Part shown: in pieces, positions 22,271-64,000 of the stretch
Numbering within the stretch: position 1 is the stretch's first letter
Layout: the number at the start of each line of letters is the position of its first letter
Source: Haplodiscus bocki
Lineage: Eukaryota
NCBI GenBank assembly: GCA_965655095.1
Contig: OZ296649.1
Coordinates: 72,850,001 to 72,914,000 of the forward strand
DNA length: 64,000 nt
Reading direction: 5' to 3'
Made by a program: the position numbers and the translations under genes
Notes under the pieces: model-generated
The model's database searches: none
Seen by the model: only the letters and a program-made list of their open reading frames with translations
What the model was told of the DNA's origin: nothing

Positions 22271-22300
22271 TGATGAAAAGAGGCTCCGGCAATATCCACA

Positions 22301-24260: not shown

Positions 24261-24289
24261 TTTTGTAAAAAATAATTTAGCTTTTGAAT

Positions 24290-25012
24290 TCCCACACTTT
24301 CACCTTTTTGAGTCAGAGTTAATGACTTTAGTTTTTCCTACAGGACTAATACTGTGCATGTTGAGGTTAATTGCTCCATTGAGATTGATTTTTAGAGCGT
24401 TTGCTTTTCTTCAGAGTGGACACTGCGACTTCACTGTCATCACTTTCTTGAGAATTTCCCGTATCCTCAGCCTCATAATCAATGAAGGGGCAGATAGGAA
24501 GCCTTTTAGATGCTAGACTCGTTTCATCGTCAGTGAAATGGTCAAAATCCACACATTGAGCTTCTTCGTCAAAACCAAGGTCATTTTGTTCATTGAGATA
24601 GTATCCAGGGTCAGGGCCGGCTGAGAAAAAAGTTTACCTAAAAACGAAAGTCCATTTGAAATCAATTTTTGAACACTCCAGAAAGAAATGTGTCGAGTCA
24701 AAATGATGCTTTGCCCTATCAAAATGTTTAGAAGTTACTCACAAAAAGAACTGGCAGCTTTCCATGCCTTTGCCAAGGGTCCGTGATTGTGGACAAAGAG
24801 ACTGCTAACGTTAGAACTGGTTTGAGCCTCCTTGTCTCGATCGCTTGTTGTAGAAATAACACTGTCACTATGAACATCACCAGCATCATCATCATCATTA
24901 AACTCAGACGAACTGGATTCAGAAAAAGAGTCAATATCAACTAAACAAAAAGGAACGGTTCGCATTTTTCTTTAGACTTGATTTTATTTGTGCTGAGACT
25001 TTTCCTTGTCAT
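24290..25012 (-). pseudogene. Acidic Polinton ORF remnant downstream of PolB
   Basis: ATG at 25012 immediately after the PolB stop; Asp/Glu/Ser-rich fragments 24735..24965 and 24367..24552. Confidence 0.45.
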
Positions 25013-25013
25013 T

Positions 25014-28950: not shown

Positions 28951-29433
28951 GATAGTCGAACCAAGCTATTGATAGGAGAGAGGGTTTCCCTGAACATCTA
29001 AAACTTTTCGACACTGTTTTTGATATACGACACAGAAATTCCTAAACCACGTTTCGTGATTACAAAAAATAAATCAACAAAAAAATATGAATTAAAAAAA
29101 GGAAAACCCTCTGGACATTTTTATTTTGAAAATTTTTTTGAGGTATGTGGTTCCCTTTGGGTAACAGTCAATTCTAAGTTTCCGAATAAGATATTAAGCT
29201 GAGGTATTTAATATTTGGACAATTGTAATTGAATTCTTAAAGTTCGAATTTATTTGGTGAAGTTTCAGTACGAGAATACAGTACGGTCGTTGAATGCATT
29301 TTATCTATGGAATTAGGAATATGGTGTCATTTTTGTTAGTTTTCGTGATGGGTTTAGATGAATTGTACGGAATTGGTATCATCGTATAATCTCTTGACAG
29401 CAAGATGTCAATTCTATTTTGGGTTCCAGTTCG

Positions 29434-29560
29434 GTGGCTTCATCTATCAGTAAGCTGTCAAACTAGTTTTCTTGGTCAATATTAGGCAAAACCTTCATGA
29501 TTGTGCAAAAACTGCAAAGGAATTAAAAATGCACTAACCCCCCCCCTTACCCATACTACT
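29434..29560 (-). repeat. Polinton right terminal inverted repeat
   Basis: Reverse complement of the left TIR, ending CCATACTACT and followed by the TSD ATTGTT. Confidence 0.93.
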
Positions 29561-30514
29561 ATTGTTTTCAGAAAAAACCGCCTACAAAATTTCCCCATAC
29601 AACAAATGTGATTTTTTTTTCAGTAAATAACTCTTCCGAATCTTTCTTAGTTCAGGAAAATAGTACAGAACATTTAGGTACTTGAATATTGTCGCCCAAT
29701 AAATTCACTTAAATTTTTCAGATACATCAGCCTTTTGGGTCAGTTGATTCGCCAATTGAAATTACTTTTTCTCATCTTTAACAATTATTTTTAATATATT
29801 GGCACTGCAATCTGTAATTTCGACAGTTGCCCGTCTTTTGTTCCACTGGCGCGCCAATGTAACTAGGGCGGATAATTGAACTTCATCTCATTTCGAACCT
29901 GGACTACGTGATCACAACTTTGTGTTATCCACATAATTTACCTGAAAAAAATTGGGAGCCATGTGCAATGCAACAGACCGGATTCGTCCGGTGATAAGAC
30001 GAAACTGATTTTTTTTGAAATATACAAATTGTCGAATATCAAATAAAGTAGGATCGCATTCTTTAACATGTTTTTACCTGGAAGCGCATTTTTTAAAAGT
30101 ACCTAAAATCGTCGGTGTCTAATCGAGCGACTTTTCAGTCAAAGGAAAATCTTTTGCCAGCCGAAGCAAGCATACTTCACGCTTCTCTAAACGTGATTGT
30201 ATTCGCATTTTTTCTGGTCTTCACAATAGCTATTTTTTCTGTTTTTATCATCTAAATAATTCCAGAAAAATAATGGCACCGGTTTTATAAATTAAATGCA
30301 TTTAATGATGGAGCCTGAATGGCTTTCCCATTCTAAATGAAGACATCATAAATAATTCCATTATGAATTCTCCAATCCCTGCACTTAACAGTCAGTAGAT
30401 AGAATTTCATCATCCATATCTATTAGCTACTATAATGAACTTTTTGCATGTCGCTATAAGTTTTTCAGCGTAATATATTGTTCGTTTTATCAAGAAAAAC
30501 AAAGAGGACCTTGG

Positions 30515-33299: not shown

Positions 33300-33920
33300 T
33301 TTAACAATCGCTTGTTTTCGTTCTTTGGATTTTATCTTGAATAGCTCTCGAAATGCGCGGGGCGATTGTTGGGGTTTTAAATTTGCTATTTCTTGGCGTT
33401 GAAAAGGGGGATATCTCTATTGAAAAACAAATTTGCAAAAAGAAGAAACGGCTTTAATTATTTCGTGCAATGTTAAGCAAAAACAGTACAAAATTACAGC
33501 AAAAGAGAGTCACTTACATTTGGCTGATTTATTGTTGAATGATTCTGATCTTTTATTTTCGGTTTCTCCAAGTTGGGTGGTTTCGCGTGCAGGTGTACTT
33601 TTTGTCAGACAGATGCTTTTTTCATAAATACTACATTAATTTTAGAATAATATTTGCGGTAGAGGCAGGTGAAAAGATTTTACAACAAGCGTATAATAAT
33701 AAAGTATACGAGTACTGTGAAAAAAAATATTATTTGCAGGTGAATGTAATATTATTTTACTGCAAAATAGATACAAAAGAAAAAAAAGCACACGCACACT
33801 TAATCAGTTCAGGTGCACTATTGGGACCTGGGACATATTACTCATATTACTCAGCTACAAGTCTTTCAGTTATTGTAACGCAAATGTATTTTTTTTGTTT
33901 TTGTTTTTTTAGTTGTTATA
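33300..33920 (-). repeat. 3' LTR of element A
   Basis: Direct repeat of 44971-45591 (about 20 differences by eye); sense termini TATAAC...TGTTAAA. Confidence 0.93.
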
Positions 33921-33966: not shown

Positions 33967-34943
33967 TCAAAAAGTGTCATGCATCCGCGATAAAAATGTG
34001 TCACAGTCAATGCAGGTTCTGAGGTTCCGTTGAGTACGTCGGATACCATCAATTCCACAACAATTATACACGTTTCGAAGGTGTGGAGTTTGCAGAATAT
34101 TTTTGGTCTCACTAACCACAAAGACAAGAGGTTTAACATAATTAGGGGCATCGGGATTTTTGTCGGGATGTATAAGTTTGAGGATATGGCGAGCATGGAA
34201 AGCTAATTTGTTCCGAAGTAGCATCGAGGGAGCAACCAAGTAGATCGTAGAGCATGGATTCCGCTGCAAATTCAAGGGTGTTGGGATAGGTTGAAATTTG
34301 GCGAAGGAGCATTGTCTTAGGGCCGTTGTAAGATTCAGAGCTGATAGCAGACGTTTTTAAAGAAGAAATCTGTTCCGAGAGTTCTAAGGTCCTTGCGAGG
34401 AGGGCAGAATTTTCTTCATTGAGGACTTGGAGGCGTTTTTGGAGTTCCTGGATTTTTTCTTGTTTGGTACGCAATTCAGCCACGGTTTCTTCCATGACAG
34501 CAAAAGTATTATTCGCGGCTGTTCGAGCCTCTTCAAAACCTTGTTGTAATTTGCGAACATTGCAAAATTCGCTTGCCAACAAGTCCAAAGCTTCGTCCGA
34601 GTCTAGGGTTGCCTCAACGCTCACGTCAATGGTTTCAGGAAGAACAGGAGGGGGCAGGGGCGGGGAACAAAGGCCGTTGGGGGTCGGTTCATTGACATGA
34701 ACACTCATGTTAGAAGTGAGAGGAGGAGTGACCCAGATCTGGCTGGCCGGACGTACAGAGGCACGGTGCTTGGGTGCGTTTATCTTCTTAAGGGTAACAT
34801 TTTGACTGGTCGCATTGATACGAAGAACTCGATACTCGCTGGGGTCCAAGATTTGAACCACGTCACCAGGCGCCAGTTCAACCACGCGACCACTGCTGGT
34901 GAAGAAGGGGGCTTTTCCAAAAGAGAGCGGCACTGTTGAGAAC
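33967..34943 (-). pseudogene. Accessory ORF A: beta-rich N-terminal domain, Pro-rich linker, coiled coil, HPD J-domain, CxxC
   Basis: ORFs 34142..35014 and 33967..34275 join across one frameshift: MLYDLLGCSLDATSEQISF/HARHILKLIHPDKNPD...NILQTPHLRNVYNCCG...CIDC. Homologous to 56888-57879. Confidence 0.85.
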
Positions 34944-35378: not shown

Positions 35379-37863
35379 TCAGGTTGAAGTCTGGGCGTAC
35401 TGCGGTGAGGCAATGTCGGGGTAGGCTCGCGGCGGTAGAGCGGGCGCACAAGGAGAAGTGTAGTTCCACGGTTGCGCGTTGGCCTGAGTCATAGTCTCTC
35501 GTGCGAGAGCGACCAGTGCTCGGAACTCATCCGATGTAAGGTACAAAAACGAAGTATCAGTTTTTTCGTAGTCTGCTGGGTTTGATTCGACGATGTGTAT
35601 AAACCGTCCGGAAGTTCCACGGAAGAACTTTTGCGGGTGCCTAAAAAGGCGTTGCCACTGACGACGAAAAAAGGTAAAGCTCAGTGAGAATGTAAGTAAA
35701 GACTTTGAAATAGACAACGTGGACAAGAGAACAGTGGTACGAGTGGGTAGGTAGGATTGCAACGCGGGTGATGTGGCGGGCGTGATGGACGAGTAATAAT
35801 CAGCAATCGGTTTTGTGAGCTCATCGAGAGTGGTTTGCGACATGTGTTGAACATCCGGAAGTTCAGCTAATTCCATTCTGAGACTACATACAACGGATTG
35901 TCGCGCCTCTCCTGTAGAGTATGCTTGAAATTCGGTTGCACCTATGTCAGGGACGCGGGAAAAAACGTTTTGAAGTGATGGAGTAAGTTCGATGGAAGCC
36001 AGAAGGCTCCGGTTGTGTTTCGCAGAAATCCATGTCCGGATGCAAAACAAGATCGCCTTGATTAAACGAAATGATGCTGTTACAGCTGGGTCGCATCACA
36101 CATGCCTGGCACTGGATGGAAGAGATCGAAAGACCATGTGTTTGACTATCATTTTTGATTTGCAGCGTCGCGGTGCGTGAGATTATGTGATACATGCCAT
36201 CCGCAAGATAGAAGGCTTGCGGAGCGTCAGGCAGCAGAACTGAAATGACTTGACAGTTGCGGAGGGCCGGAATATCGTAATTGTAAAAGAGTGAACCTAA
36301 ACAAAGGAGTGTTTCATCTGTTGTTGTGGAAAAACCTTTTCGGCAGAGTTTGATTCGATAGTTCCCGGAACACTGTTGTAGTGTGTGCGATCCAAGCTCA
36401 GCAAACCTCGTGTTATCGGTGGATATTGCGAGAAAAGGATTTGTGAATGTGTACAAGGAGGCTGTTTTCTCGTCATTATTGGGCTGATATAACGGTGTGG
36501 CATTGTATATATCAAATTTTGAAGACTTCGAATTCATTGGTATGCCCAGAATAACGGATATGCCACGATGAATGAGCGTGACCTCTAGGACAAGTTGTAT
36601 TTCGTAATATATTGTCTCAAAACCAGGGCGTATTGCCGGTGACAACTTTGTTCCACGGGTTACTTCGTCATCTGCTAACTCCTTGACAATTTCAGCAATT
36701 TGTTGGGGTAACAAGAATTGTGGTGTGATATAACCACAGGCTAACGACGAGATTGTCGAGAAGAGTGAAAACTTGTAGGCAAAAAAAGCTGCGCGATATG
36801 TTTTCAAATGTGTGTATAGTGTTCCCATTTGGTACACGTAATTCCTGATTGCTTGCAAAAGGTGCATGTGTCGTACAATGACATGGTCACATGCGAGACT
36901 AGTACGGGCCAAGAATAGCGTTGCGTTTACGAGGTAGGATTCCATTTGTTTGAATCGTACGTCCACTACTTCCTTCAACTTGCGAACACTTTCCTGTGTT
37001 CCTTTGATTTCGTTTCCCAGTATGAAGAAATTTTTATCGTTTCTGGTTTGCACACGTTCCAAATTTTTAACAATTGCGTTCTGTGTTCGCATGATGTTGT
37101 CCACATCTCGTGACAGAGCATCGTTGTTTTTACAGAGGTTGAATATTGACAGCGCATTGCATGCAGCATTTTTAAATGGTTCTTCTAGAACTAATCCGGC
37201 GCCGGCTGCCACTGCTGCAATCGCTCCAATAGCTCTGCGTGATCGGCTACCCGGTTTTTGGTCCCTTCGTGCACCGGGCGGAATGAAGGAATTGGCTACG
37301 TCCAATAAACTTTTTTCCTCTTCTAACGCTGCCGTCAGCTCATATTCTAAAAAGCTAACTCTTGTCTCAAGTTGCTGGAGAAGGAGGGCATATGTTTCAT
37401 TGAAATACATATACTTGCAGTTTTTATTGATGTATATGACACCAATTGAGTCAGGGGCCCGTTTGAAAGCTTCAACCATGTATGTTGCTTGGGTCAAGTT
37501 AATTGCCGGAATCCGAGGGAACGGTGAGAAAATACGGACCTTACTCTCGCTCTCGGAGGTAACCGCTTGATATTTGAAAATAAAAGCAGCGCCTTTCTTG
37601 AAGACTGGTTTAGCCAAGTCATCACCCACATGAGTGGTAAATTGCATCTGGAGCTTGATTATGGGCAAGAAGACACTCACTAGTAGAACCGGGAGAATCA
37701 GTTGCTTTATTGAAGCAACTCGTTTGGATTTTTGAGAAGTGCTGAAACAACAACGACGTGGAAGGATTGCGCGGAGATCCTTGAAAGTAGAAAGGAAAAC
37801 AAAAGCTATAAAAATGCGAACAAAAAAAACGTTTAAAAAAGTTGATCGAACCTCTTGGTTCAA
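35379..37863 (-). pseudogene. env: Envelope glycoprotein, class I fusion (F-type); one frameshift
   Basis: Hydrophobic leader, furin site RSRR followed by fusion peptide AIGAIAAVAAGAGLVL, heptad region, Cys-rich domain, TM helix (VLLSTLSISKSLLTFSLSFTFF) and cytoplasmic tail. Confidence 0.9.
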
Positions 37864-42664: not shown

Positions 42665-42726
42665 GGGCCTATCGTGGTGGTCTTGTCTGCGCGGCGACCC
42701 GTGGGCGTAGACTTTTCTAGTTTAAA
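42665..42726 (-). promoter_or_regulatory. gag-pol -1 ribosomal frameshift signal (UUUAAAC plus H-type pseudoknot)
   Basis: T TTA AAC directly before the gag TAG; 7-nt spacer; stem GTCTACGC/GCGCAGAC; loop GGGTC pairs with downstream GGCCC. The -1 frame is open into the protease. Confidence 0.85.
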
Positions 42727-43874
42727 GAATCATTTCTTTTGGACCTGCAGTCTCTTTGGAAATGACCGGGTTTCAGGCAATTGAAACAAGCCTTGCAGTC
42801 TTTGGAAACATGGTTTGTTCTTTTGCAATGCTTACATGCGCTCTTGTTACTGTCGTGTTCATTGCGCTTCTTGCGCTGGCTACTTGAACCATTGTCCCGA
42901 TTTTGGTTATCAGACCTGCGAAAGTTCGTCCTTCCCCGTTCTTGGGGAGATTGGAACCTAACAGAGCGAGTGCTACTTCTAGAATCATTGCTGAGTGAAT
43001 GTAACCGCTTCATGTTCTTAATCTCATTGGAGCCTGGTTGCACTTGGGTACTTTGCAACTGTGAATTTTGCAAACTTTGGCTCAACAAGCGGACAAGTTC
43101 TTCCAAAGTTTCGTTTGATGTACCCTGTGCTACTCGGTTAACACTTTGTGTGACTGCGGAATTTCCGTTCTCAATTTCTAAAAACGCGTTGAGCTCCATT
43201 GAGGCAGTTAAGGCGTCGTCCGCTGTTTGGGGTTTCGCTTTCCGCAGTTCCCACCGCAGGGTTTTGTCGCTGAGTCCTTCTACAAACGTGGTCAAGACCA
43301 TTGGGTCTATCATTTCAGGAAAATCACGATAGGCACGCCTGGCAAGGGTGCGGACATCGCAGAGGAACCCTGCGATATCTTGCTTTAGTTGCTGCTTCGC
43401 AGCCTCAAGACGTGCTTTCAAAATGTCGCCATTAGTTGTGTAATTCTGTCGGAACGCCACAATCAACAAGTCAAAATTTGTCTGTTGTTCGAACGATAGT
43501 GTTGTGTAGAAGTGAGGGGCGTTTTCCTTCAGGCGAAGAGCAAAGTAATGCGGTCGGTTGACATGAGTGTTGGAGTGCCATCCTGACAAGAGGGCGGCTG
43601 TGTTGAACTGTTGCAAATAATCTTCAAAATCGCTTGTGCCCGTGAAGGACTCAGGCATTAGGCATGAAGGGAGTGGAGTGACGTATGGGAAGCCTCGTCC
43701 TCCTTGTGGACTGCCTGGCATTGCAAAGAAATTTGCACCGGTGGCGGTTGAATTCTGGGTGTTCATTAACCCGCTGGCTTGGTGATTACTTCCGACAGAG
43801 TTACCTGGATTCGTCTGAGAATGTTGTTGTCCTTTTTGGTTAGTAGGAGTCGTTGGAGGAGGTGAGTTTGACAT
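42717..43874 (-). CDS. gag: Gag with two tandem CCHC zinc knuckles
   Basis: Capsid-like region (PESFTG..FEDYLQQF) and CKHCKRTNHVSKDC-KA-CFNCLKPGHFQRDC. Confidence 0.93.
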   Translation of the reverse strand: MSNSPPPTTPTNQKGQQHSQTNPGNSVGSNHQASGLMNTQNSTATGANFFAMPGSPQGGRGFPYVTPLPSCLMPESFTGTSDFEDYLQQFNTAALLSGWHSNTHVNRPHYFALRLKENAPHFYTTLSFEQQTNFDLLIVAFRQNYTTNGDILKARLEAAKQQLKQDIAGFLCDVRTLARRAYRDFPEMIDPMVLTTFVEGLSDKTLRWELRKAKPQTADDALTASMELNAFLEIENGNSAVTQSVNRVAQGTSNETLEELVRLLSQSLQNSQLQSTQVQPGSNEIKNMKRLHSLSNDSRSSTRSVRFQSPQERGRTNFRRSDNQNRDNGSSSQRKKRNEHDSNKSACKHCKRTNHVSKDCKACFNCLKPGHFQRDCRSKRNDSLN

Positions 43875-43909: not shown

Positions 43910-44302
43910 TTAGAGTCGGTTCATGCTTCTTGAGGTGGAGTTTATGGGAGCACACTCAGGAAAACCCAAAAAGGATGGATTTGACACATGTAGAGAAAGG
44001 AATTCAATGTGCGAACGCCAAATGTTTGCTAAGTGGGGAAAGAAATGCGCAGACGTTGATTTTACACTAGAAGTTTGAGTGCTGGGAAGAAAAGGGAGCT
44101 GAGGTTGTCCAGTCAGATGTTTCCAATGATGAATTGCTTCCAAGCGAAGATGAATACTCATTTGATGAGGTGTGAACAGAAAATCTGGTAGTTGCGACAA
44201 AGGAATTTTGAAAAACTTTGCTTGGCAAAAGTAATACGGTATAATGTATGTTTCACGAACGGCATTCGAAAACACGGACACAGGAATGCAGAAAGTGAAC
44301 AT
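43910..44302 (-). CDS. Upstream ORF2 of element A (unknown function)
   Basis: Same position as, and aligns with, 47423..47791 (PYYFCQ/PCFFCQ; IHHWKH/IHDTEH; HLANIW/RLARKW). Confidence 0.55.
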   Translation of the reverse strand: MFTFCIPVSVFSNAVRETYIIPYYFCQAKFFKIPLSQLPDFLFTPHQMSIHLRLEAIHHWKHLTGQPQLPFLPSTQTSSVKSTSAHFFPHLANIWRSHIEFLSLHVSNPSFLGFPECAPINSTSRSMNRL

Positions 44303-44335: not shown

Positions 44336-44590
44336 TTAATCACTTTTTGAGGTTTGAATGCTTTGACAAGTAACGTTTACACGGTTTACTTCGTACGAAA
44401 GACCGCAAAGCGCTAGGACGATCATCAGCAGCGCGAAAGTTTGGACGATAAACAAAAAAGTCAAAAAACAGATAGAAAACAACGGTCTGGAACGGGCTTC
44501 ATCGTAAGAAGGCGGCGGACCGATCGGTCGGGGGTTTTCATGCGGTAAGACGTACAAGGGCAGATGCGAATGAGGGTGAGAACACGGCAT
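44336..44590 (-). CDS. Upstream ORF1 of element A: PPxY-motif single-pass membrane microprotein
   Basis: HLPLY...PPPSY then a long hydrophobic helix and RVNVTC; homologous to 47105..47356. Confidence 0.7.
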   Translation of the reverse strand: MPCSHPHSHLPLYVLPHENPRPIGPPPSYDEARSRPLFSICFLTFLFIVQTFALLMIVLALCGLSYEVNRVNVTCQSIQTSKSD

Positions 44591-44970: not shown

Positions 44971-45591
44971 TTTAACAATCCCTTGTTTTCATTCTTTGGA
45001 TTTTATCTTGAAAAGCTCTCGAAATGCGCGGGGCGATTGTTGGGGTTTTATATTTGCTATTTCTTGGCGTTGAAAAGGTGGATATCTCTATTGAAAAACA
45101 AATTTGCAAAAAGAAGAAACGGCTTTAATTATTTCGTGCAATGTTAAGCAAAAACAGTACAAAATTACAGCAGGAGAGAGTCACTTACATTTGGCTGATT
45201 TATTGTTGAATGATTCTGCTCTTTTATTTTCGGTTTCTCCAAGCTGGGTGGTTTCGGGTGCAGGTGTACTTTTTGTCAGACAGATGCTTTTTTCATAAAT
45301 ACTACATTAATTTTAGAAAAATATTTGCGGTAGAGGCAGGTGAAAAGAATTTACAACAAGCGTATAATAATAAAGTATACGAGTACTGTGAAAAATAATA
45401 TTATTTGCAGGTGAATGTAGTATTATTTTACTGCAAAATAGATACAAAAGAAAGAAAAAGAACACGCACATTTAATCAGTTCAGGTGCACTATTGGGACT
45501 TGGGACATATTACTCATATTACTCAGCTACAAGTCTTTCAGTTATTGTAACGCAAATGTATTTTTTTGTTTTTGTTTTTTTAATTGTTATA
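44971..45591 (-). repeat. 5' LTR of element A (contains AT|GTAAGT donor at 45190-45183)
   Basis: Direct repeat of 33300-33920, adjacent to the PBS. Confidence 0.93.
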
Positions 45592-45991
45592 GAAGCAAAA
45601 GTTTCTTAGAATTTCAACTAGTTTGCAATGGTGTTTGTTTGAAACTTCTAGGAAAATCATTATAAAAGTTAGCAATTTTGCACCTCTATGTATTAACATG
45701 GGAGGTTGATATTGCGTCACAACTTTCGATGTTTTAAGTACCTTCTACTCCGTTTTTGTCTACATTTCACATACTGTAAGATACCTTGCATCTACTGATC
45801 ACACTCAGAAGTTGGCAGCTCCCCGGTGTTTACACTATCAAAATGAATGTTCGGCGCGATGGGAAGTCACCTGTCGATTACTGAGCAACACAGCGAAATC
45901 TGCTGCTCTCAAACCGAAATTGTGCTACCGCTCGAAATGAAATCTGCTTTTTGCAAATTTCCTTCAAAATTATTGAATTTATTCTTCAAAG

Positions 45992-46705
45992 TGTAGCGGC
46001 CCTGTATGAACCTGTACGAACATTTTGCAAGCAAATACTTGTCATCCACTTCAGATTAATATTGTCATCTTTTGTCCCCCAGCCCCATAAACAGGCCTCC
46101 TTTAAAACAATCATGTCTCAGCTTTGTATTCAATTAGCCAAGTAAACCCACACTTGAAGTGGCAATCTATCCTATCATAAACCGTCATTTTCATATGTTA
46201 TATTATATTCCAGTCTTAACTTGTTGATTTTCACATGCATCTAAACTTAAAACTAGACCTCAATTTGTAAACTTTCATGTTAATCTAAACCTGAAACAAA
46301 CTTGTAAATTATCTTAAAAACGTGAATCCCCCAACATTCTGCTGTTAATTGTAATCCTGTTTAAAACTTGAATATTCACGAATTCGAAACAAGAAAAAGA
46401 AGCAAAAACAGAAAAATTAGCGATCATTGGAACACTGAAACGAAACAAGAGGAAGCTGCTCGCCAGAGAAGACACAAGAAAGAAAAACTCTGAACAACTG
46501 TGATATTCTGCTGATCATCACTAATGTAAGTGATTTCTATTAAACATTAAAGTAAATTCAATCTTAAAGCAAAATTAGATTTTCTCTTGGAACAATCCCA
46601 AAAGAGTACCTAACACATACAACCGTCCTCGCATCCGAAGTTTTGAAAGAAATGAAAACCCTAAACTCTTGTTGCCAATTTTCCAATAAAATCACGGTTG
46701 TTAAA
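45992..46705 (+). repeat. 5' LTR of element B (AT|GTAAGT donor at 46524-46531; AATAAA at 46685)
   Basis: TGTAGC...TGTTAAA; about 6 differences from the 3' LTR by eye. Confidence 0.95.
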
Positions 46706-47104: not shown

Positions 47105-47356
47105 ATGTTCCCTAACCATACTAATCAACTGCCCCTATACCTTTTCAACCAAAACCACGCCGTTGACCCCCCACCCCGTTATTCACGAAGCGACTCCAGG
47201 AGACTACGCCACGATAGCAGCTCTGTTTTCGTCTGTGCGCTTTTCGCATTCTGTGTACTAGCACTCCTCTTTTTGATAGTAATAAGATTAGTCCTCGTGC
47301 GCATACAATTAGATCACGTAGTAGCCAGTTGCACAGCCACTCCGCAAACAAACTGA
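47105..47356 (+). CDS. Upstream ORF1 of element B: PPxY-motif single-pass membrane microprotein
   Basis: QLPLY...DPPPRY then VFVCALFAFCVLALLFLIVIRLVLV and HVVASC. Confidence 0.7.
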   Translation: MFPNHTNQLPLYLFNQNHAVDPPPRYSRSDSRRLRHDSSSVFVCALFAFCVLALLFLIVIRLVLVRIQLDHVVASCTATPQTN

Positions 47357-47422: not shown

Positions 47423-47791
47423 ATGCACTCTTTCGTTTCCAAATCAGAAGCCAAATTCTTAGACCCCCAGCATACCCCCACCCAATACCCGTGTTTCTTC
47501 TGTCAAGTCGAATCGTTCGGACTCTTTCAACATTTAGAGAAATATTCTGACCATGCCTGTCAATTTTCACCTCAATTGTCTTTATTCTACTTAACTCTGC
47601 TGCAAATCCACGATACCGAACATAGTACTAACGCTGCTGTCCCAAAGCTTTCAAGTAGAAAACAATTATCGAGAGTGCGTCCCAAATCACTGTTTTATTT
47701 TCGATTAGCTAGAAAGTGGGTAGAAAACTTGCAAATTACTGAAGCCTATTTGATAAATCTGTACCTCAAAAGTGAGAAAACTGAAAGTTGA
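47423..47791 (+). CDS. Upstream ORF2 of element B (CxxC...HxxxH, unknown function)
   Basis: Homologous and syntenic with 43910..44302. Confidence 0.55.
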   Translation: MHSFVSKSEAKFLDPQHTPTQYPCFFCQVESFGLFQHLEKYSDHACQFSPQLSLFYLTLLQIHDTEHSTNAAVPKLSSRKQLSRVRPKSLFYFRLARKWVENLQITEAYLINLYLKSEKTES

Positions 47792-47865: not shown

Positions 47866-49284
47866 ATGACTGAATTGGAAGAAGTAAATAACCTCGAAGT
47901 CAACGAACTTGAAGAAAGAGACGCAGACGCGTCAAGGAGATCTCGAATAACAAACTCAAATGACCCTCATTCAACCCCGGGAGTTGATGCGCGACACGGA
48001 GCAAGTGGATCCGCATCGGCCGGACCTCGTTTTTCAACACTGTTGGGCAACGGCGCAGTCCCAACGGCCCAGACGGGACTTGGTGGTTTCTACTTGAACC
48101 CTCCCAGTACCCTTCCGTCATGCTTGATGCCTGACTCATTCACTGGATCCGGAGACTTTGAAGATTATCTCCAACAAATTAACACCGCAGCAATGCTCTC
48201 GGGATGGCACTCCTCCCGACACGACCATCGTCCCCAATATTTTGCACTTCGATTGAGGGACAACGCACTTCATTTTTACACCACATTGTCAACCGAACAA
48301 CAAAACGATTTTGACCTCCTTGTAGACGCTTTCAGACAAAATTACACAACAAATGTGGACATTTTGAAAGCACGATTAAAAGCTGCGAAACAGCAACCAA
48401 GTCAAGACATAGCAACTTTCCTTTGTGATATTCGAACTTTGGCGCGCCGAGCATACCGTGCCCATCCACATTTGATAGACCAAATCGTCCTTAACAGTTT
48501 CATTGAGGGATTGCAAAGTTCTACTCTCAGATGGGAACTGAGAAAAACGAAGCCGTCGACAGCCGATGAAGCCCTGACACTGGCCATTGAATTAGATTCG
48601 TTTCTTGCTTTGGAGCGCCAGAATAATGCTCCGACCAAATTCTCGTTCCCGAGCAGTGTTAATTCAATCGCAGCCAACACTTCGCAACCGGACCCTATGG
48701 ACGACTTCGTTAAAAGTCTCAGAAATGAAATTGATGAATTGAAATCATCAATCCACAGAAAACAAAACTCGCCTGAAAGAAGTCGGAATCAGTACCGCAC
48801 TAGTGACCCCAATTGGAACAGAAGCGGTTCCTTTGAACAGAAACATTATCGACAAAATTTCGAAAGAAGAAACGACGAACGGAGATCCGACAAATATGAC
48901 AACAGAAGTAAATCACGAGACAGAACAGCAAACAGGACAGTTCACCACAATGACCGAAGCACCTCGTATGACAGACAAAATGGTTTCAAAATCCGATCGG
49001 TTCGATTCGAAGAGGACTGCGGATTCACAGACAACAATCAACGACTTCATAGACACAATCCACCCCTGCGCTATAATACACAAAACATGACTGCCGGAAA
49101 TACCCAGCCAATTCCTTACAATCGCAACAAAACACCTCCCAGATACCAACCCCAAAACCAAGTATGTAGACGTTGTAAACGAAGAAACCATGCATCTCAT
49201 GAGTGTCAAGCCTGTTTTGATTGCCTTCGTGTTGGACATTTCCGAAAAGACTGTCCTATGCAACGATCCAACCCGGAAAACTAA
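47866..49284 (+). CDS. gag: Gag with two tandem CCHC zinc knuckles
   Basis: Intact 472-aa ORF; capsid-like region close to Gag A; CRRCKRRNHASHEC-QA-CFDCLRVGHFRKDC. Confidence 0.93.
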   Translation: MTELEEVNNLEVNELEERDADASRRSRITNSNDPHSTPGVDARHGASGSASAGPRFSTLLGNGAVPTAQTGLGGFYLNPPSTLPSCLMPDSFTGSGDFEDYLQQINTAAMLSGWHSSRHDHRPQYFALRLRDNALHFYTTLSTEQQNDFDLLVDAFRQNYTTNVDILKARLKAAKQQPSQDIATFLCDIRTLARRAYRAHPHLIDQIVLNSFIEGLQSSTLRWELRKTKPSTADEALTLAIELDSFLALERQNNAPTKFSFPSSVNSIAANTSQPDPMDDFVKSLRNEIDELKSSIHRKQNSPERSRNQYRTSDPNWNRSGSFEQKHYRQNFERRNDERRSDKYDNRSKSRDRTANRTVHHNDRSTSYDRQNGFKIRSVRFEEDCGFTDNNQRLHRHNPPLRYNTQNMTAGNTQPIPYNRNKTPPRYQPQNQVCRRCKRRNHASHECQACFDCLRVGHFRKDCPMQRSNPEN

Positions 49285-49336: not shown

Positions 49337-51734
49337 ACAACGAACTTTTGGATTAAACTCGGTGGTCGACTCGCGCAGTGTTTTTGTACAACTGAAAATT
49401 TTAGACAAAACAGTGGAAGCAGTATGCGATTGTGGAGCAAGTGTATCTTGTGTGAGCTCTGAGATTTACAATGAACTGAAAAAAACTTATCAAATAACGT
49501 TGAAAAACTGCACCAGAAGCCTGAGAGCGGCAAATGGACTGCCGATTGATGTGAAAGGCATCATCAGAGTACCAGTATATGTGGGGAATAAATTATTCCA
49601 TCACGAATTTCGAGTCTTGGAAAAAGCACAAGCTGACTGTCTTTTAGGTCTGGATTTCTTAGAACGCCATAAATGCGACCCCTTGTTTTCACGAATGGAG
49701 TTAAAACTGGACTCAACCCATGCTGTCCCCCTCTATCACAAAAACTTTGAAAGTGACCACAATGCTATCTTTCGAGTCGTTGCGACCGAAACCATTAAAG
49801 TACCATCAGGCCACGCAACAATTCTTCCAGCACACATCCCAAATTGGAAGAGACCATTTTTCCATCTAAATGCTGTTTTTGAACCTTTGGAGAAATTCAC
49901 TATGAGTGAAGACATCTCAGCTCCCAACATACTTTTTGATTTTTCTGACGAGATGATCCCTGTCATAATGACTAACACAACGGACTCCGAGATCACGATT
50001 TTCAAAATTACAACTCTTGGGTCATCCGAACTTGTATCTGATGAGATTATCAATTTTGTTAGTCGCCCATTGCTAGCCTCCAGCGCACCTCCGGCTGCAG
50101 GATCGGTACAAAACCGGATAGAGTCCTCGAGAAACGACTTGCAAACAGTGATCACCTCAGTTGATCCAACCATTCACCGACAATACCATCAACAATTTGC
50201 TGCACTCTTCAAAGAATTCATGCACGTTTTTTCGTCCTCAGAATGGGACTTAGGTAAGTGCGACGCTACCAGTCACAAAATTGATGTACACCCGGGTTCG
50301 AAACCGATCAAAATTCCTAATCGCCGAATGCCATTGCACTATAAAGAATATTTGCAGTCCAAACGATGTCTTTTTGGAAAAAGACCTGATCGCTCCTTGT
50401 CACAGTCCTTACAGTTCTCCTGCTATGTTAGTGCCAAAGAAAAATGGAAAGTTGCGTCTTGTTATTGATTACCGCCAACTCAACAAGCAGACTGTTAAAT
50501 CCAGTTGGCCGATCCCGTCTATTGAGGAAATCTTCGACACACTGGGCAGAAGTTGTTATTTTTCTACAATTGATATGTCCGCTGGATTTTATCAGGTTCC
50601 CATGCACAGAGACAGCCAAGATTACACTGCATTTAGCACCCCCTTTGGGTCGTTCAAATGGCTGCGAATGCCGATGGGACTAACCGGGAGCCCGAACACT
50701 TTTCAAGGCCTAATGGAACATGTCCTTACTGGCCTTACTTGGAAAACTTGTGTGCCCTATCTCGACGATAGCATCATCTTCTCTACTACCCCAGAGGAAC
50801 ACCTCTCACGTTTACGCCAAGTGTTTCAACGTTTCCAACAGGCTAACTTGAAAATCAATCCTTCGAAATGTGCTTTCTTTCAAACGAAGGTACAATTCCT
50901 TGGGCACATTGTCAGTAAAGATGGACTTCAAGTGGACCCCGAGAAAATCAATGCAGTACTTAAGTTTCCTACGCCCACCAACCAGACACACGTGAAGTCC
51001 TTTTTGGGCTTAGCTTCTTACTATCGCCGCTATGTCAAGGATTTCGCCGAAATCGCTCGACCTTTACACAGAGCAAGTGAAACCTCTTCTGAGTTTCAAT
51101 GGAATGAAGCGGCACAAAATTCTTTTGACTCGTTAAAACATCGTTTGACGACCACTCCAATTTTAGCATACCCGTCACTTCAAAAGCCATTCGTGTTATA
51201 TACAGACGCCAGCCAGCTTGCAATGGGCGCTGTTTTGGCTCAGGAACACGATGGTCTGGAAAGAGCGATCTGTTACGCATCCAAGGCTCTCTCCAAGACC
51301 CAGAGCAAGTACTCAACAATACGCCGTGAGCTTTTGGCCATTGTGACATCCACCCGTCACTTCAGACATTACTTACTGGGACGCCAGTTTACCATTGTAA
51401 CGGATCACCGAGCACTCCAATGGTTGCACAATTTCAAAGATCCTGATAGCATAACTGCCCGTTGGTTGGAAAAGTTGGCGCCTTTTGATTACGATGTTCG
51501 ACATCGTCCAGGAAAGTCAATTGGACATGCTGATGGACTGTCACGAATTCCATCGTCCGTCAATGCAGTAGCAGAAACAAACAACCCTTCATTCCCGTTT
51601 GAAGAACATCTGGGACCCGATGGCTCACCCACCCACCTAACGCCAGCGACAGACGGTAGTTACTATTCTGACCAACATCACATTGATTCTCCCACGGCGA
51701 GTGCCGCGGCACAACAGCAAGATGCAGCAATCGG

Positions 51735-52150
51735 AATTTACCGTGAAACCATCGGAAACCTTTTCGATACCCAAGATTCTTTTGGCCACTGTGTGTCCGC
51801 TGACTTCAAGCTGTCGGCCGGTATTGCGAGAAAAATCCGCCGTAACTACCCTTGTACTTATCGAGCCGGTTGGAATCACAGTACGAATCCCCTTTGGCCA
51901 CAATGGTTGCCTGAATCCAAACGATACATCTACCATCTAGTCACAAAACAGAAGTTCTATCAGAAACCAACTTACGGAACTTTGCGTGCTTCCTTGGAAA
52001 GAATGCGATCGCATGCCGAGAACCATCGCGTTCGCAAAATTAGCTTGCCATGTATCGGATCTGGTCTCGACAAGCTCGAATGGGAGCAAGTACGCCAACT
52101 GATTCGGGAAGTTTTTCGTACTTCCCCTGTTCAAATCACAGTTTTTTTGA
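51735..52150 (+). other. TARG1/OARD1 (Poa1p-like) macrodomain within Pol B
   Basis: IGNLFDTQDSFGHCVSADFKLSAGIARKIR...RYIYHLVTKQKFYQKPTYGTLRASL...ISLPCIGSGLDKLEWEQVRQLIREVF; in frame with RT-RH and IN. Confidence 0.92.
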
Positions 52151-54123
52151 AAGCTTCAGTAGACCCTACGGAGAACGACTGTAACTCCAATTTCAATGAC
52201 AACGCATTGGCACAGGCACAGGAAGCTGATGAAAGCTTACACCAGGTTCGGAAAAGGATTCGAAGCAAACGTGTACACAAAAATGATGAACTGCAAGGAC
52301 TTCCTCGTTTGGGATGGCAAATGTTCAACCAATTATCTAGTCTTCACATCAAAAACAACGTGCTTTGTCGGAAGTTTGAACCACTCGACGGAAATTTGCC
52401 CTTCTTACAACGGATTGTCCTGCACTCCATGGTACCAGAAATTTTGACGGCTTTGCACAGTTCTAAAACCGCTGGTCATTTGGTCACGCACAAAGTCATT
52501 GAAAAAGTGCGTCAACGTTTCTACTGGCCTGAATTTAAGGAAGATGTCAAGCAATTCATACTATGTTGCGATGCCTGTCAAAAGAAGTCTGGACCCCCAA
52601 AGACTAACCGCCATTCCTTAGTTGACTGAAAGATCAGCTACTCCTTCCACCACATTGGTCTCGACTTTCTTGGCCCACTTCCCCTTTCTAATGGCAACCG
52701 CTTTATTCTTGTGATTGGCGACCATTTCACCAAATGGTACGAGGCGATACCTCTGCCGGACCAGCAAGCTTTCACTACTGCCGATGCGCTACTTGAACAC
52801 TGGATTTGCCGTTTTGGATGCCCTAATAGCATTCACACGGACCAAGGCCGTAATTTCGAATCAGCCTTGTTTTAACGCCTGATGACATTGCTCGAAATCA
52901 ATAAGACACGGACTACTTCTTTCCACCCACAGTCAAACTCAGTCATTGAGCGCATGAACCGTACATTACTGAATATGCTCACCAAAAGTATCGACAAACA
53001 ACAAGCTAACTGGTCTTATTTCCTTCCCTTCGTCCTCATGGCCTATCGGTCCTCCGTACACGAATCAACCGGTTTCACTCCGAACCGACTTGGACATGAG
53101 GTTTTGTTTCCTCTCGACTTGATGTATCCGCCTCCCGAAAGCAACGTCCCCACTAACATCAATGAATATGTGATGACACAACAACGGAAATTTCAACAAG
53201 CTTTCGAACTAGTTCGGCGAAATACTACGGCTCAACAACGCCGTCGCAACGCTCTTTACAACAGGAAAGTCCACGGCCCCACATACCGTGCGAACGAATT
53301 TGTCCTTCTCCACTACGATGTCACTGTTACTGGACAAAGTCCGAAACTATCCAGCCCCTGGCGCGGCCCCTACCGCATTTTGAAGTGTATCAACGACGTT
53401 AACTACAAAATTGAAGAACTCTCCACTGGCAAACAGCAAATTGTTCTTTATGATCGCCTCAAACGATACCATGGAACTCCCCCTCTCTCAACGCCAATAC
53501 CGACACGACAATCAGCTCCTGGACCTGCTCAGCAGACGACATCACACCCCTCCTCGACGACCGTCAATCACGATGACTGCGTTGTCTCGTTTATACCTCC
53601 TCCTAATCTCTTTGCTCCCTCACGTGGTTTAGCCACCCGCTTCCAATCCCCACAGACACCACCCCACCCAGAAATGTCACCGTTGATTCTCATGTCACAA
53701 AACCTCTTTCAGCGAGTATAAATGCCTCGACACTTCCCTACGATTTAACGTCTAGCTCCTTGCCATCTCAACCCTCCCTTCCTTGCCATAGTACTACCCC
53801 TTCCAATCAACCCAGGACCCTTCCGTTTGCCAACTCCACGCCTACGAGATCCCCTTCTTCCCGGTGGAGAATATTGTTCGCCGCGCTGCTCGCGAGCTAC
53901 ACAACCGCAGTCCCTCCAACAAACGTACCCTCCGACCTAGCACAGTGACTCAACGAAAGACACAGCCTCTTTTCCGCTCTCGCTTACCCCGCGATCTGAC
54001 GGATTTCCTTTCTCCTCGGAGGCTGACAAAAACAAAGCCTCCTGCTCTGTCTAACCAGCACTAGTACTCTGTCCCAGCCAATACATCAACGCCGAATGAT
54101 TGTATGGTCTTCTCTTTATTTAG

Positions 54124-56488
54124 GAGACACCCCAGCTATATGACGTCAACAACCCCTTTCCTTTTTCTTCCTATTATATTCTCCCTTCTCAACTTCTCTG
54201 CTGTGGTACAGTTCACAACACATTTGAGCGATTCATTGGACGACCCTGTTTTCAAGAAAGGTGCTGCTTTTGTCTTTCAATTTCAGGACGTGACACCGGA
54301 AAGTGAGAGTAAGCTTCGTGTGTTCTCACCGTTACCCAGGATCCCTGATATTAATTTGACCAACGAGCATACGATCCTCCAAAAACGAGGACACTCCGAT
54401 ACCCTTGCAGGAATGACCTCGGTTAAGATGTGCGACACCGCCGACATGGAACACTTATATGACAACTTATTTAATCGACTCGAAGAAAAATTGAGAATTT
54501 TGGAAAACGAAATTCAGGCTGCTCAGACGGATCAACACAATTTGGTGACGATGGCTTCTTCCTTCTTACCGCCGTCGATGCACCCGCATGAAGCGCCATC
54601 ACGAAGCAAACGAGCCATTGGACTCATTGCAGCGGCTGCGGGAGCCGCGGGACTGGCTCTAGGTGACCCAGTCAAAGAGGCTGCATGTTCAGCGCTCTCT
54701 ATTTTTAACCTTTGTACGGATACTACAGATTTGCAAAACGATATTGACGGAATTTTAGCGACTCGAAATCAGTTTCAAGATGTTCTGCAACGCGTTCAAA
54801 CGAAAAACGATGAAAAATTTGTCTTGCTTGATAACGAAATCAAAGACACACAGGACAGTGTAGTCAAGATAACAAAACTCGTGGGCACACAGTTAAAGGC
54901 CCTGGAAACCGAATTGATGGAAATCAAGGGCGTGATAGCCACTTTCCGGTTTGTCATCGACAAATTATACACAGTATGTCTTTCTTGCAACAAATTCGAG
55001 ATTATATTGCCCATTTGGGAACACTGTACGCACATATTAAATCTTATAAAGCCGCTTTTTACGCCTACCAGATTGCGCTCTACTCCACGATTTCGTCACT
55101 GGCCGCTGGGTATGTCAGCCCTCAATTCCTCCTCCCTTCCCAACTGGCCTCCATTGTCAATGAGCTTGCCCATGACGAGATTCTCCATGGCACCAAACTC
55201 TCGCCTGCCATCCATGTGGGCCAGGAAGCCATTTACTATGAACTCCAGATGGTTTTAAAAGTTTCCCTTCTCCCCAAAGGTATTTCAGTTGTCCTTGGCG
55301 TCCCGATGAACTCAAAGCGCAATGTCTATCGCGCCATTCCCTTGTACCAGCCTAACGATGATGGCGATACCGCTTCCTTGTATCACTTCCCAAAACCTCT
55401 TCTAGCCATTTCTACTGACAATTCCCGTTTTGCTGAGCTCGATGCCGCCAGCCTTCAGCAGTGCTCTGGTAATAACCGCATTAAACTCTGTCGTCAAGGT
55501 TTTTCGACCACTACAGACGAAACCTTGCTTTGTTTACCTTCTTTATACTATAACTACGATATACCCGCTCCTCGTAACTGTAAAGTAGAATCTGTCCTTC
55601 TGCCTGACGCTCCCCAAGCTTTTTACTTGGCTGATGGTTTATATCATATTATATCTCGTGACCCTCACATACAGATGAAGAATGACAGTGGCTCTGACTT
55701 TTCTATTTCTACCTTATCTTGTAAAGCTTGCTTGATCCGCCCTAGCTGCAGTAGTACCCTCTCTTTCAATCAAGGTGATTTGGAGCTTCGCCCTGACCTC
55801 GATCTTCTGCAAAACCAAACCCGAACCCTTCTTGGCCAAAATACAGCTTACTCCTTCTCTTGATCAGATCTTTCAGCATGTTCCCCGCACCACCAGTAAC
55901 TTTCACACGTATTCTGTGACGGAAGCGCGTCACTCCGTCCTTAGCAGCGTTCGTTTGGAATTAGCTGAACTCCCTAATGTTAATGCAATGTCCAGCGACT
56001 CCGTTGCTGAGCTGACTAGACCAATCGCTCAATATTATTCTTCCGTCTCTCCGGCAACTTCTGCCGCCTTATCCTCTTATCTCCCCACCCGTACAGCTAT
56101 CTGTTTTTCCGTCGTCTCCATCACCATTTCTCTCCTGACATTCAGTATCAGTTTTACACTCTTCCGTCGCCAATGGAAACGTCTCTTTGCACACCCTCAA
56201 CGGTTTTTCCGTGGTACTTCTGGAAAGTTCTTGCACATCGTGAATGCCCATCCGACTTCACCTGACGCAGACTCTTCTTTCTTGTACCTTTCGGTGCAAG
56301 AGTTTCAGGCCTTGCAGGCTCTTGCCCATGCCACACTCCGTGACCAGACCCCACCTTTAGTCTCCACCAACCCTCCGGCTGCCGCCTTACCCACTCACCC
56401 TCCTACTAACTACTCTCACCCTAACCCCCCACTCACTAGTGTGTATCCTACTGTTACCGTCCCTCTGTACTCAGAAACTTCTACATAA
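54124..56488 (+). pseudogene. env: Envelope glycoprotein, class I fusion (F-type); two frameshifts
   Basis: Acceptor TCTCTTTATTTAG|G at 54123; signal peptide; RSKR followed by AIGLIAAAAGAAGLALG; Cys-rich region; TM helix (AICFSVVSITISLLTFSISFTLF). Confidence 0.9.
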
Positions 56489-56887: not shown

Positions 56888-57879
56888 GTCTCACTTCAAC
56901 TTCTTCAGCACCCACCCTGCCCGCCGCCACCCTGTGTTAACAAGTTCTGGACGCATCCACCCTGTCGCAGTCGGTGACCATGTGTATCTAGTAGAGGACA
57001 TACAATATCGTGTCACCAAGTTGTCCCCCGACAGTGATTCTGTTTGTCTCCAGAAAATAAATTCGCGAGACCGTCCCTTCAAGCGTTCAATCCGCCAAAT
57101 CTGGTTGCCACCACCCATTACCTCTGAATCTTCTGCCTCCGCTGACCTCCCCACTGCAAACTGTTTCTGCCCAGAACCCTCGCCTCCTCCCGTTCTCCCC
57201 GACGTCATGGATACGTCCTTCCAAACTGACATGGACAAAGAGTCAGCTCTCAATGATTGGGTCACCGTCACTACCGACTTTACTTCTGTCACCCAACTGG
57301 ACAAAGCTTTCCAAGATGCCCGACGTGAGGCTGAAGTCTTTTACGATATGTACACTGAAGCGGATTTGGCTGCTGCCTCCGCCCGCAAGCAAATTGAACA
57401 CCTTACAGCCGAATCTCAACAGCTCCGTTCTTCCCTGGATGACTTGAACCGTACCCACAATAGCCTCATGGCTGACTCCCTCCGACATATCAAACGATAT
57501 CAGTTCCCTCCGCACTCAACTAACCTCTTTGGACGGCTCCCACACAAAAGCGTTAGCTTCTATGATCCAACATCATCTCTTATCTCTTCCCACCGATTTT
57601 AACGACCCTGCCACCCCGGATGACACACTTTATCATTTTCTCTGCTGTAACCCTTCCGCCGATATGTCCACCATTGTTCGTCATGCCAACACACTTCTGC
57701 GTTGCCTACATCCTGATAAAACTTCGCCCACTACCGACCACGCCGTAGCTGCCTCTCGTCTTGTTCCCCTCCTTACTAACATCAAACGTGTTTTAACACA
57801 TCCGGGCCTCCGCAAAGTGTATGACCACTGTGGTCTTCTTGGCTTCCGCCGCCTCTTGGACTCTTTCCTTCGTTGCTAA
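56888..57879 (+). pseudogene. Accessory ORF B: beta-rich domain, Pro-rich linker, coiled coil, HPD J-domain
   Basis: Branch point CTAAC (56855) and acceptor TTGTTGTTTCAG|G (56887). ORFs 56934..57602 and 57529..57879: DTLYHFLCCNPSADMSTIVRHANTLLRCLHPDK...KRVLTHPGLRKVYDHCG. Confidence 0.85.
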
Positions 57880-58021: not shown

Positions 58022-58735
58022 TGTAGCGGCCCTGTATGAACCTGTACGAACATTTTGCAAGCAAATACTTGTCATCCACTTCAGATTAATATTGTCATCT
58101 TTTGTCCCCCAGCCCCATAAACAGGCCTCCTTCAAAACAATCATGTCTCAGCTTTGTATTCAATTAGCCAAGTAAACCCACACTTGAAGTGGCAATCTAT
58201 CTTATCATAAACCGTCATTTTCATATGTTATATTATATTCCAGTCTTAACTTGTTGATTTTCACATGCATCTAAACTTAAAACTAGACCTCAATTTGTAA
58301 ACTTTCATGTTAATCTAAACCTGAAACAAACTTGTAAATTATCTTAAAAACGTGAATGCCCCAACATTCTGCTGTTAATTGTAATCCTGTTTAAAACTTG
58401 AATATTCACGAATTCGAAACAAGAAAAAGAAGCAAAAACAGAAAAATTAGCGATCATTGGAACACTGAAACGAAACAAGAAGAAGCTGCTCGCCAGAGAA
58501 GACACAAGAAAGAAAAACTCTGAACAACTGTGATATTCTGCTGATCATCACTAATGTAAGTGATTTGTATTAAACATTAAAGTAAATTCAATCTTAAAGC
58601 AAAATTAGATTTTCTCTTAGAACAATCCCAAAAGAGTACCTAACACATACAACCGTCCTCGCATCCGAAGTTTTGAAAGAAATGAAAACCCTAAACTCTT
58701 GTTGCCAATTTTCCAATAAAATCACGGTTGTTAAA
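58022..58735 (+). repeat. 3' LTR of element B
   Basis: Direct repeat of 45992-46705. Confidence 0.95.
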
Positions 58736-62163: not shown

Positions 62164-63254
62164 TGTTCAGAGCTGAACCAGCCGACTTTAATTTTGACAT
62201 CTCTGGTCATAACTGATTCAGTGATGAACATTTCTGAACATCTCTGATTCAGCGCTGAACATTACTGGCAAGCAGCAAACAGGCAAAGACCATAAAAAAG
62301 CCAAAACAAGTGGTTTTTGTAATATTGATGCTGAAGAGACGAGAAATCGAAAATTTCAGAATAACTTTAAATGGGTTATTGTGAAAAATTCTAAAAATGT
62401 GATTTTTCCGAGATCTGTATTTTCTTTTGATTCCATGTCAGAAGACTTCTTACTAGAACAAACAAAAGTGAAAAAATGCCAAAATACCTCCTGCAATCGC
62501 GAAAAAAACTTTACAGGGTTAATTTTGATGTTTTTACAGTGTTTTTGCGCGAACATGTAAAGTCTCAGCGCCAGCAATGTTCATGGCTGGATCAGAAGAA
62601 ATCAGTTATGTTCAGAGCTGAATCATTATTTTTCAGAAATGATGCAGAGAAAATCAGTTATTTTCAGAGCTGATTCAGTATTGTTCAGAATTCATCAGAG
62701 TCAATTCGACGGAGCAGAATAACGTCTCAGGTTTTATTACCTAATCACATTCTGGGGGGGGGGGGCAGGAATTACATGTAAAGAATAACGTCTAAATCAA
62801 TTTCGGGAATAAAACCTAAAGCCATGCCAAGCTCCTCCAGTATCTTAGTAACACTGTGTTTTAGACGTTTTTGATTTGGACGTTATTCCCCAGTGACTTT
62901 AACATGTTATTCTTTTGATGTTTTGGGGGTTTTAGACCTTATTCTGTTTTGATATTTTAGATCTTTATCCCACTTTTTTTTTGTGTGGGGGGATAACATC
63001 TAAATCCATTTCGGGAATAACGCCTAAAGCAATATGATGCTCGCTCTGTTATGGATTTTTGCCTGAAGTTTGTTTGTTTTGTCCTAATTATTAATTTATT
63101 TTGTTTTTTTTTGTGTTTTTCTTAAATGTAGTTCATACGAAGTTGACATAACATAGGTCGAAAACCAATCAGCTATGAAGAGCGCCAACAGAGGTTTTCA
63201 GACCGTTTCAGAGTTGAAACAGTAGTTTTCAAAAGTTTTCCGTGGTATTCAGAC

Positions 63255-63670
63255 TTTTTCCGAGATGACAAGATTTTCATAGATGTTCAGAGCAGTTCTC
63301 AGACAATTTCAGTAATGTTAACGGATATTCATGAGTGTTCAGCTATGTTTAGGGCTTTTCAGAGATGACCAGAGATTTTCATAGATGTTTAGAGCAGTTC
63401 TCAGACATTTTCAGTAATGTTAACAGATATTCATGAGTGTTCAGCTATGTTTAGGCCTTTTCAGAGATGACCAGAGATTTTCATAGATGTTTAGAGCAGT
63501 TCTCAGACATTTTCAGTAATTTTAAGAGATTTTCATTGGTGTTCAGCTATGTTCAGGCATTTTCAGAGATGACCATAGATTTTCATAGATATTCAGCGGT
63601 TCTCAGAAATTTTCAGTAATGTTCAGAGATTTTCATAGGTGTTAAGCGATGTTCAGTAATTTTCGTAATG
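63255..63670. repeat. ~102-bp minisatellite, about 4 copies
   Basis: GAGATGAC-containing unit starts at ~63261, 63361, 63463 and 63565. Confidence 0.85.
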
Positions 63671-64000
63671 ATCAGAGAGTCTCAGTTCTGATAATAGCTG
63701 TTTCAGCTCTGAAAATCGCTGAATTCTTACTCTGTAATAACACTGATCATGGCTGTTTTAACTCTGAAACAGTGATTTTCATTGAAATTCATGCAATGTG
63801 CATCAATTATCAGTTCTGAATCATTCTGAAAAATCTATTTACATCGCTGAATCAATCTGGAGTTTCCATGATCATCGCTGAAAGTAGTAAGGACATCAAC
63901 CCGGGTTTCGTCGTTTTATAGTCAATGTAGGCAAGTTATCGAGGGTTCAAATAACACAACCTCTTCTTATTGTTTGCCTTTCAAGATTTATGCTGACAAA

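Follow-up and report, generated by a model that had tools for sequence, protein, structure and literature searches.

What might a membrane microprotein with a PY motif, encoded ahead of gag, be doing in a retrotransposon? The question is raised by two short ORFs in the window, by which we mean the whole 64,000-nt stretch of Haplodiscus bocki DNA that was analysed (contig OZ296649.1, positions 72,850,001 to 72,914,000): one of 83 aa at 47105..47356 on the plus strand, in what we call element A, and one of 84 aa at 44336..44590 on the minus strand, in element B, many relatives of which are 88 aa long. A first-pass annotation, made from the DNA letters of the window, had described both as a conserved gene with the motifs LPLY and PPP[RS]Y, a single hydrophobic helix and a distal Cys, and had proposed that the product is either a matrix or budding adaptor or a Vpu-like adaptor for a ubiquitin ligase. 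All four features were found in both ORFs. In the element A protein, the first PY-like motif, LPLY (residues 9-12; 47129..47140, plus strand), varies among related families, and the main PY motif, PPRY (residues 23-26; 47171..47182), falls among the most conserved columns in an alignment of 14 sequences. These are followed by a hydrophobic helix of about residues 42-66 (47228..47302), predicted from hydropathy and a structural model to be transmembrane, and by Cys76 (47330..47332), which is retained in families A-F. The element B protein carries LPLY at 44563-44552 and PPSY at 44515-44504 on the minus strand. Kyte-Doolittle peaks over 19 residues reach 3.3 for the element A microprotein and 2.6 for that of element B, and the predicted model of the former leaves residues 1-37 without regular structure and forms a single helix from 38 to 78. 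The two proteins align locally with a score of 69, as against 25 +/- 5 for shuffled sequences, and none of 2000 shuffles scored as high.

Each microprotein ORF is located between the 5' LTR and the gag gene of its own element, and the two elements stand head to head, their 5' LTRs separated by only some 400 nt (45591-45992). The 5' LTR of element A (45992..46705, plus strand) is 99.2% identical to its 3' LTR, which lies at 58022..58735, and AAAG flanks the element at both ends. Its gag (47866..49284), with Retrotrans_gag and zinc knuckle matches in Pfam, is followed by a pol in several pieces (49695..53721; RT, RNase H, Macro domain and integrase, by Pfam), an F-type env in three pieces with the tail motif YPTV (54104..56488), and coiled-coil and J-domain-like ORFs (57207..57879), all on the plus strand. 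On the minus strand, the aligned part of the 5' LTR of element B (44971..45591) shows 96.8% identity to 33300-33920, the gag ORF occupies 42717..43874, and pol includes RT, RNase H and integrase, with a Macro-like domain seen by similarity in B's family. The order of LTRs, gag, RT-RNase H-integrase and env is that of Ty3/gypsy elements. The Env of a family H relative matched Baculo_F at E 2.8e-5 with 23.4 bits, slightly below the 24.1 cut-off; for an alignment of Env, the match to a solved fusion protein had E 5e-4; and a basic cleavage site, RxxR, precedes a hydrophobic run. Judged from gene order and Env sequence, both elements are Ty3/gypsy elements with an F-type env. They share LTRs, gag-pol-env, a furin-like site and a fusion peptide with the F-type-env Ty3/gypsy errantiviruses of metazoans treated in PMC13524379, the main text of which contains nothing on small ORFs, PPxY, accessory genes or Macro domains, although its supplements could list such ORFs. 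Relatives of env numbered zero among viral contigs, and the single env fragment obtained from metagenomes is 1.4 kb long and lacks a leader.

Several further observations concern these elements and their surroundings. The Macro domain lies within pol, between RNase H and integrase (51780-52110, plus strand; Pfam E 1.7e-5), and was matched in sampled copies of all nine families described below. The coiled-coil and J-domain-like ORF 3' of env (57207-57879 on the plus strand, 34142-34708 on the minus strand) occurs in eight families and was not seen in family G. Elsewhere in the window, the stretch 15227-29561 is bounded by 128-nt inverted repeats, contains a P-loop ATPase-like ORF at 17630-18307 and B-family DNA polymerase-like fragments at 25108-28950, and resembles a decayed Polinton/Maverick. 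About ten diverged 1.03-kb tandem repeats fill window positions 1-10100, and a 102-nt tandem repeat lies near the window end (63194-63684).

Searches of the genome with gag and pol, besides the microprotein itself, yielded nine families, A-I, eight of which have a pre-gag PY/helix ORF of 74-89 aa with a proline-rich N-tail and one helix. When the element A microprotein was used as query, all 150 scored places (among 457 candidates) matched it; with a D-type protein as query the figure was likewise 150 of 150, and with the B protein 78 of 150. In 79 of the 80 loci read, gag follows on the same strand at a distance of 644-1464 nt, the remaining locus being without a gag match. From eight families we drew 141 copies, filtered at 72% identity and 90% coverage and with six duplicate loci removed, and among these the ORF is intact in 115, [LP]PxY is present in 121 and PPxY in 105. 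The A-D copies were found via the ORF itself, so the sample favours intact copies; in families E, F, H and I, which were found almost wholly via gag or pol, 40 of 48 copies are intact and 35 of 48 have the motif. The maintenance of ORF and motif that the first-pass annotation had supposed holds for most copies but not throughout, the ORF being absent in family G and the motif in young copies of family E.

Pairwise dN/dS of the microprotein is 0.26-0.43 in all eight families, which indicates purifying selection; the gag capsid gives 0.07-0.28, and reading in the two other sense frames gives 0.66-2.35. Values from the antisense frame in register are low as well (0.28-0.57), as one would expect of a frame whose third positions coincide with those of the ORF. 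No sign of positive selection on the microprotein was found. An ORF with both a helix and a PY motif is rare by chance: resampling the leaders 2400 times produced one, and 236 kb of other DNA, with both strands counted, produced none. Together with the A/B similarity above all shuffles, these results uphold the claim of a conserved ORF: the microprotein ORF is a gene under purifying selection at the amino-acid level.

A regulatory uORF with an irrelevant peptide, or an exon that splicing joins to env to supply a leader peptide, might also occupy this position, and the start context is indeed weak (six of eight families have a pyrimidine at -3), with 6-18 ATGs upstream of gag in the eight ORF-bearing families. 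Both possibilities are made highly improbable by the selection on amino acids and by the comparison of A, C and D, in which codon position 3 is only 33-38% identical, as against 62-73% at positions 1-2. The leader-exon version also sits badly with the predicted splicing. In element A, a donor AAT/GTAAGT is predicted at 46523..46531 and an env acceptor at 54123/54124 (both plus strand, prediction only; the slash marks the splice point); by prediction, an in-phase AG/G acceptor is present at the env start in 7 of 7 of families A-G, and an unvalidated scoring function places an AT/GT donor upstream of the microprotein gene in A-F, that is, in six of nine families. Joining donor to acceptor would create the env ATG and skip the microprotein gene, so that the ORF would not be an Env leader exon in A-F. 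Drosophila gypsy has a similar ATG-creating arrangement for env splicing. Among the joints listed for contigs of four runs, none falls at the predicted sites; the kind of these contigs is unrecorded, and they have no bearing on expression. We infer that the microprotein is translated, probably from unspliced RNA.

As for the motif, shuffling gives [LP]PxY a chance occurrence of 0.02-0.16 per family. Within families, constraint on the PY codons barely exceeds that on the remainder (pN/pS 0.35 vs 0.43, 0.31 and 0.33), and the case for the motif is made instead by the fact that it persists between families whose identity is otherwise about 17-55%. Database searches retrieved 32 and 18 relatives of the microprotein, all unnamed and all of the same protein family; 7 of 8 divergent relatives examined retain PPxY, some of the divergent ones being 40-56% identical to the families described here. 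Three relatives (P0144, P0003 and P0009) have no close match in this genome, though a first look may miss some, and this hints at a second host. No match to the microprotein at E < 0.01 was found in Pfam, Herpes_UL56 included, and an Atlas search with the window microprotein gave no usable match. The proteins of families H and I stand apart. Homology to those of A-F beyond the motif was considered and not accepted, hhalign giving a probability of 5.6%, with shuffle z values up to 5.9. In a quick tree of 22 rows, H and I fall outside the A-G clade (SH-aLRT 99), and with homology unsupported, the device would be either ancestral to the lineage or gained twice.

The position of the PY motif relative to the membrane bears directly on function. 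The H and I microproteins are 74-76 aa long and end 5-8 residues past the helix; they are thus tail-anchored, and their PPVY or LPSY should face the cytosol. In A-F, a C-tail of 18-28 residues with a conserved Cys follows the helix, and the flanking charges are only weakly asymmetric, so that an N-in orientation is not secure there. By inspection, no family's microprotein has a signal peptide or Gly2. The sequences thus make a strong case for N-in topology in the tail-anchored H and I and a moderate one in A-F, and the PY motif is probably cytosolic. The microprotein N-tails contain 1 Lys and 25 Arg among 342 residues in all, a poverty in Lys that would suit an adaptor escaping its own ligase; the Gag N-termini are likewise Lys-poor, with 4/405 over the first 45 residues.

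Two groups of copies reveal what the elements can do without. In family G, none of 14 leaders (393-447 nt) has an ATG ORF longer than 23 aa, and 19 stretches yielded no significant match to a microprotein profile. The first G copy was env-deleted, and we considered whether the ORF had been lost together with env, but a full-length env match was found in four of the five copies read, and this idea was rejected; the Gag of G is of the same kind as elsewhere. G also forms the largest pol cluster (923 members, as against 137 for C, 160 for H and 83 for F). All 15 copies of family E have the ORF intact. In the four older ones, the first site reads PPVY; the 11 young copies, whose gag is 99.8-100% identical, have no [LP]PxY at all, their main PY site reading LPS[TI][FC]. 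That young E keeps the ORF without the motif suggests that the helix has some value independent of PY. In being dispensable, the microprotein gene resembles accessory genes.

Family G also differs after env, where a Cys-rich 84-aa ORF is found (L161:5767-6021) and where some copies have, besides, a tail-anchored ORF of 83 aa that lacks PY (L161:6949-7200); the latter was considered as a homologue of the H and I proteins and rejected, its z against them being only 2-4.

These observations can be set against the proposal that the microprotein is a late domain supplied in trans, gathering with Gag or Env at budding sites and bringing in NEDD4 and ESCRT. Gag itself appears poorly equipped for budding: none of eight full-length Gags has a late-domain motif ([LP]PxY, P[ST]AP or YPxnL), the sampled B-family gag copy being frameshifted; Gly2 is found in none of nine; and the first 60 residues contain at most five K/R, without a basic N-terminal patch. 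The window Gag does have a PPRY near its C-terminus, but this is missing from the second A copy that was inspected. All eight ORF-bearing families have env, and the presence of PPxY in 105 of the 141 copies agrees with a matrix or late-domain role. There are precedents: bluetongue virus NS3 is, like the microprotein, a membrane protein apart from the capsid that bears PPRY, together with PSAP (PMC7409164), and for LCMV Z, the PPxY carrier itself need not be ubiquitinated (PMC6874086). NS3, however, has a shown role in egress (PMC7409164), whereas the microprotein gene is missing from family G, which has Gag, env and the largest pol cluster, and the motif is missing from 11 near-identical young E copies. 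The Env cytoplasmic tail (region 55988-56488, plus strand; 35379-35876, minus strand) moreover ends in YPx[ILV] in 9 of 9 families, G included, followed in most by a second Tyr, and we take this to be a candidate ALIX- or AP2-type signal. Herpesvirus PY adaptors supplied in trans lowered the yield of retroviral vectors, according to PMC5849660. Co-folding of the Gag capsid with the microprotein scored 0.00 twice, which we do not count as evidence either way. A matrix-like or essential budding role is weakened by the absence of the ORF in G, the absence of the motif in young E and the YPx[ILV] of the Env tail. Not every enveloped member needs the gene, and a late domain in trans would survive if G and young E were complemented in trans or replicated inside the cell. 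The matrix or budding half of the first-pass proposal thus keeps its premise about Gag but meets families that manage without the ORF or motif, and we regard a late domain in trans as possible but unlikely, though it is the leading alternative to the reading that we prefer.

We prefer to read the microprotein as a conserved, dispensable accessory adaptor for NEDD4-family ligases, which would send membrane proteins to endosomes much as herpesvirus proteins do; this reading has in our view about an even chance of being correct. The helix would place the microprotein in the membrane beside its target membrane proteins with PY in the cytosol, the motif would recruit a host NEDD4-family ligase by putative WW binding, and the targets would be ubiquitinated and then sorted to endosomes. 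As to what these targets might be, a host restriction factor or an Env receptor seems the most plausible guess, or else the trafficking of Env itself may be affected. At several loci of the host genome, WW domains are encoded next to HECT domains, one case being a C2-WW-HECT reading frame, and the microprotein gene co-occurs with other extra ORFs of the elements. The layout is that of HHV-6/7 U24, HCMV UL42, HSV UL56 and VZV ORF0, which according to PMC5849660 are small proteins without a signal peptide, with one or more N-terminal PY motifs and one C-terminal helix, and which bind Itch via PY; U24 also clears CD3 from the cell surface. The ORF-bearing families share this layout, only H and I being strictly tail-anchored. 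The same paper notes low sequence similarity among the herpesvirus adaptors themselves. Our microproteins show no sequence homology to UL56, UL42 or U24 (no Pfam match), and they differ from these adaptors in being encoded by a retrotransposon, in the 18-28-residue C-tail with its conserved Cys in A-F, and in that their ligase binding is putative. In the Atlas search with the H protein, the sole named cluster was UL56 (0.79, a lead only). Counting against the adaptor reading is KSHV ORF16, which has LPxY and a C-terminal helix and yet did not bind Itch (PMC5849660), a case that bears on family I, in which LPSY is the only motif.

The comparison with HIV-1 Vpu made by the first-pass annotation holds in that Vpu, too, is an accessory single-pass protein of about 80 aa linking membrane proteins to a ubiquitin ligase. 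In Vpu, the helix is N-terminal and the cytosolic domain, with DSGxxS for beta-TrCP, is C-terminal. In the microprotein this order is reversed and the motif is PY, and inspection of the eight family sequences revealed neither the Vpu layout nor DSGxxS. The adaptor half of that proposal is the better supported one, with U24, UL42 and UL56 rather than Vpu as the model for the layout.

The position of the gene suggests another comparison, with sORF2 of the MDG1 group, likewise a short transmembrane sense ORF that Metaviridae elements carry upstream of gag, with a second small ORF adjoining, according to PMC11952523. The microprotein might act as a small fusogen of the MDG1 sORF2/FAST kind or as a viroporin-like pore, and PY would then control only its turnover. 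It shares the genomic slot and size of sORF2, the distal Cys could link oligomers, and young E retains helix and Cys without PY. In PMC11952523, however, sORF2 is N-out, often myristoylated and polybasic after the helix, and belongs to elements without env, and the microprotein has none of these hallmarks: the myristoylation motif MGxxxS/T is found in none of eight families, the 15 residues after the helix contain 0-1 K/R in seven of eight families and three in F, H and I have nearly no C-tail, and an F-type env is kept. A fusogen or pore is thus quite improbable, and to all other roles together we leave a slightly larger though still small chance. The terms PPxY, Nedd4 and ESCRT are absent from the text of PMC11952523.

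The microprotein gene has small neighbours, too. Between it and gag, a second conserved ORF that the earlier annotation had missed lies in both elements, with 122 aa and an invariant CxxC and HxxxH in element A (47423..47791, plus strand) and 130 aa in element B (43910..44302, minus strand). It is 122-149 aa long, with CxxC and HxxxH invariant, in seven of nine families, is absent in E and G, and in H and I comes before the microprotein gene. Pfam gave no match for it, its 102 relatives are all unnamed, and its predicted model has low confidence (pLDDT 64). Families C, D, H and I have yet a third ORF ahead of gag, about 100 aa long (L095:2914-3216, L097:3251-3559, L145:3709-4002 and L152:3642-3941), the C protein having no Pfam match, and families C and D have a 204-206-aa ORF with an Arg-rich C-terminus directly before the 3' LTR (L096:3488-4108 and L098:3944-4558).

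The microprotein gene is thus a real, selected, lineage-wide accessory gene, in layout a herpesvirus-style PY adaptor in the slot of MDG1 sORF2. In the literature searched, mostly titles and opening lines with subscription journals largely outside it, we found no report of a PY-motif membrane protein of a retrotransposon. A protein of 80 aa with one motif is easy to test alone, and the genome offers natural controls in family G (no gene), young E (no motif) and H and I (tail-anchored, and perhaps of separate origin). It is doubtful that both budding signals have moved off Gag onto membrane proteins, PPxY to the microprotein and YPx[ILV] to the Env tail; if they had, the elements would leave cells via a dedicated membrane adaptor, a route for which we found no retroelement example in the literature searched, the PY adaptor would be part of an accessory kit like that of complex viruses, with a zinc-finger ORF, a Macro domain and a J-domain, and it would be settled whether errantiviruses use ESCRT, a question that has been stated to be open. 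If the microprotein is instead a NEDD4 adaptor, herpesviruses and retrotransposons would have converged on one membrane-remodelling device, and invertebrate retroelements would bear accessory genes akin to those of complex retroviruses.
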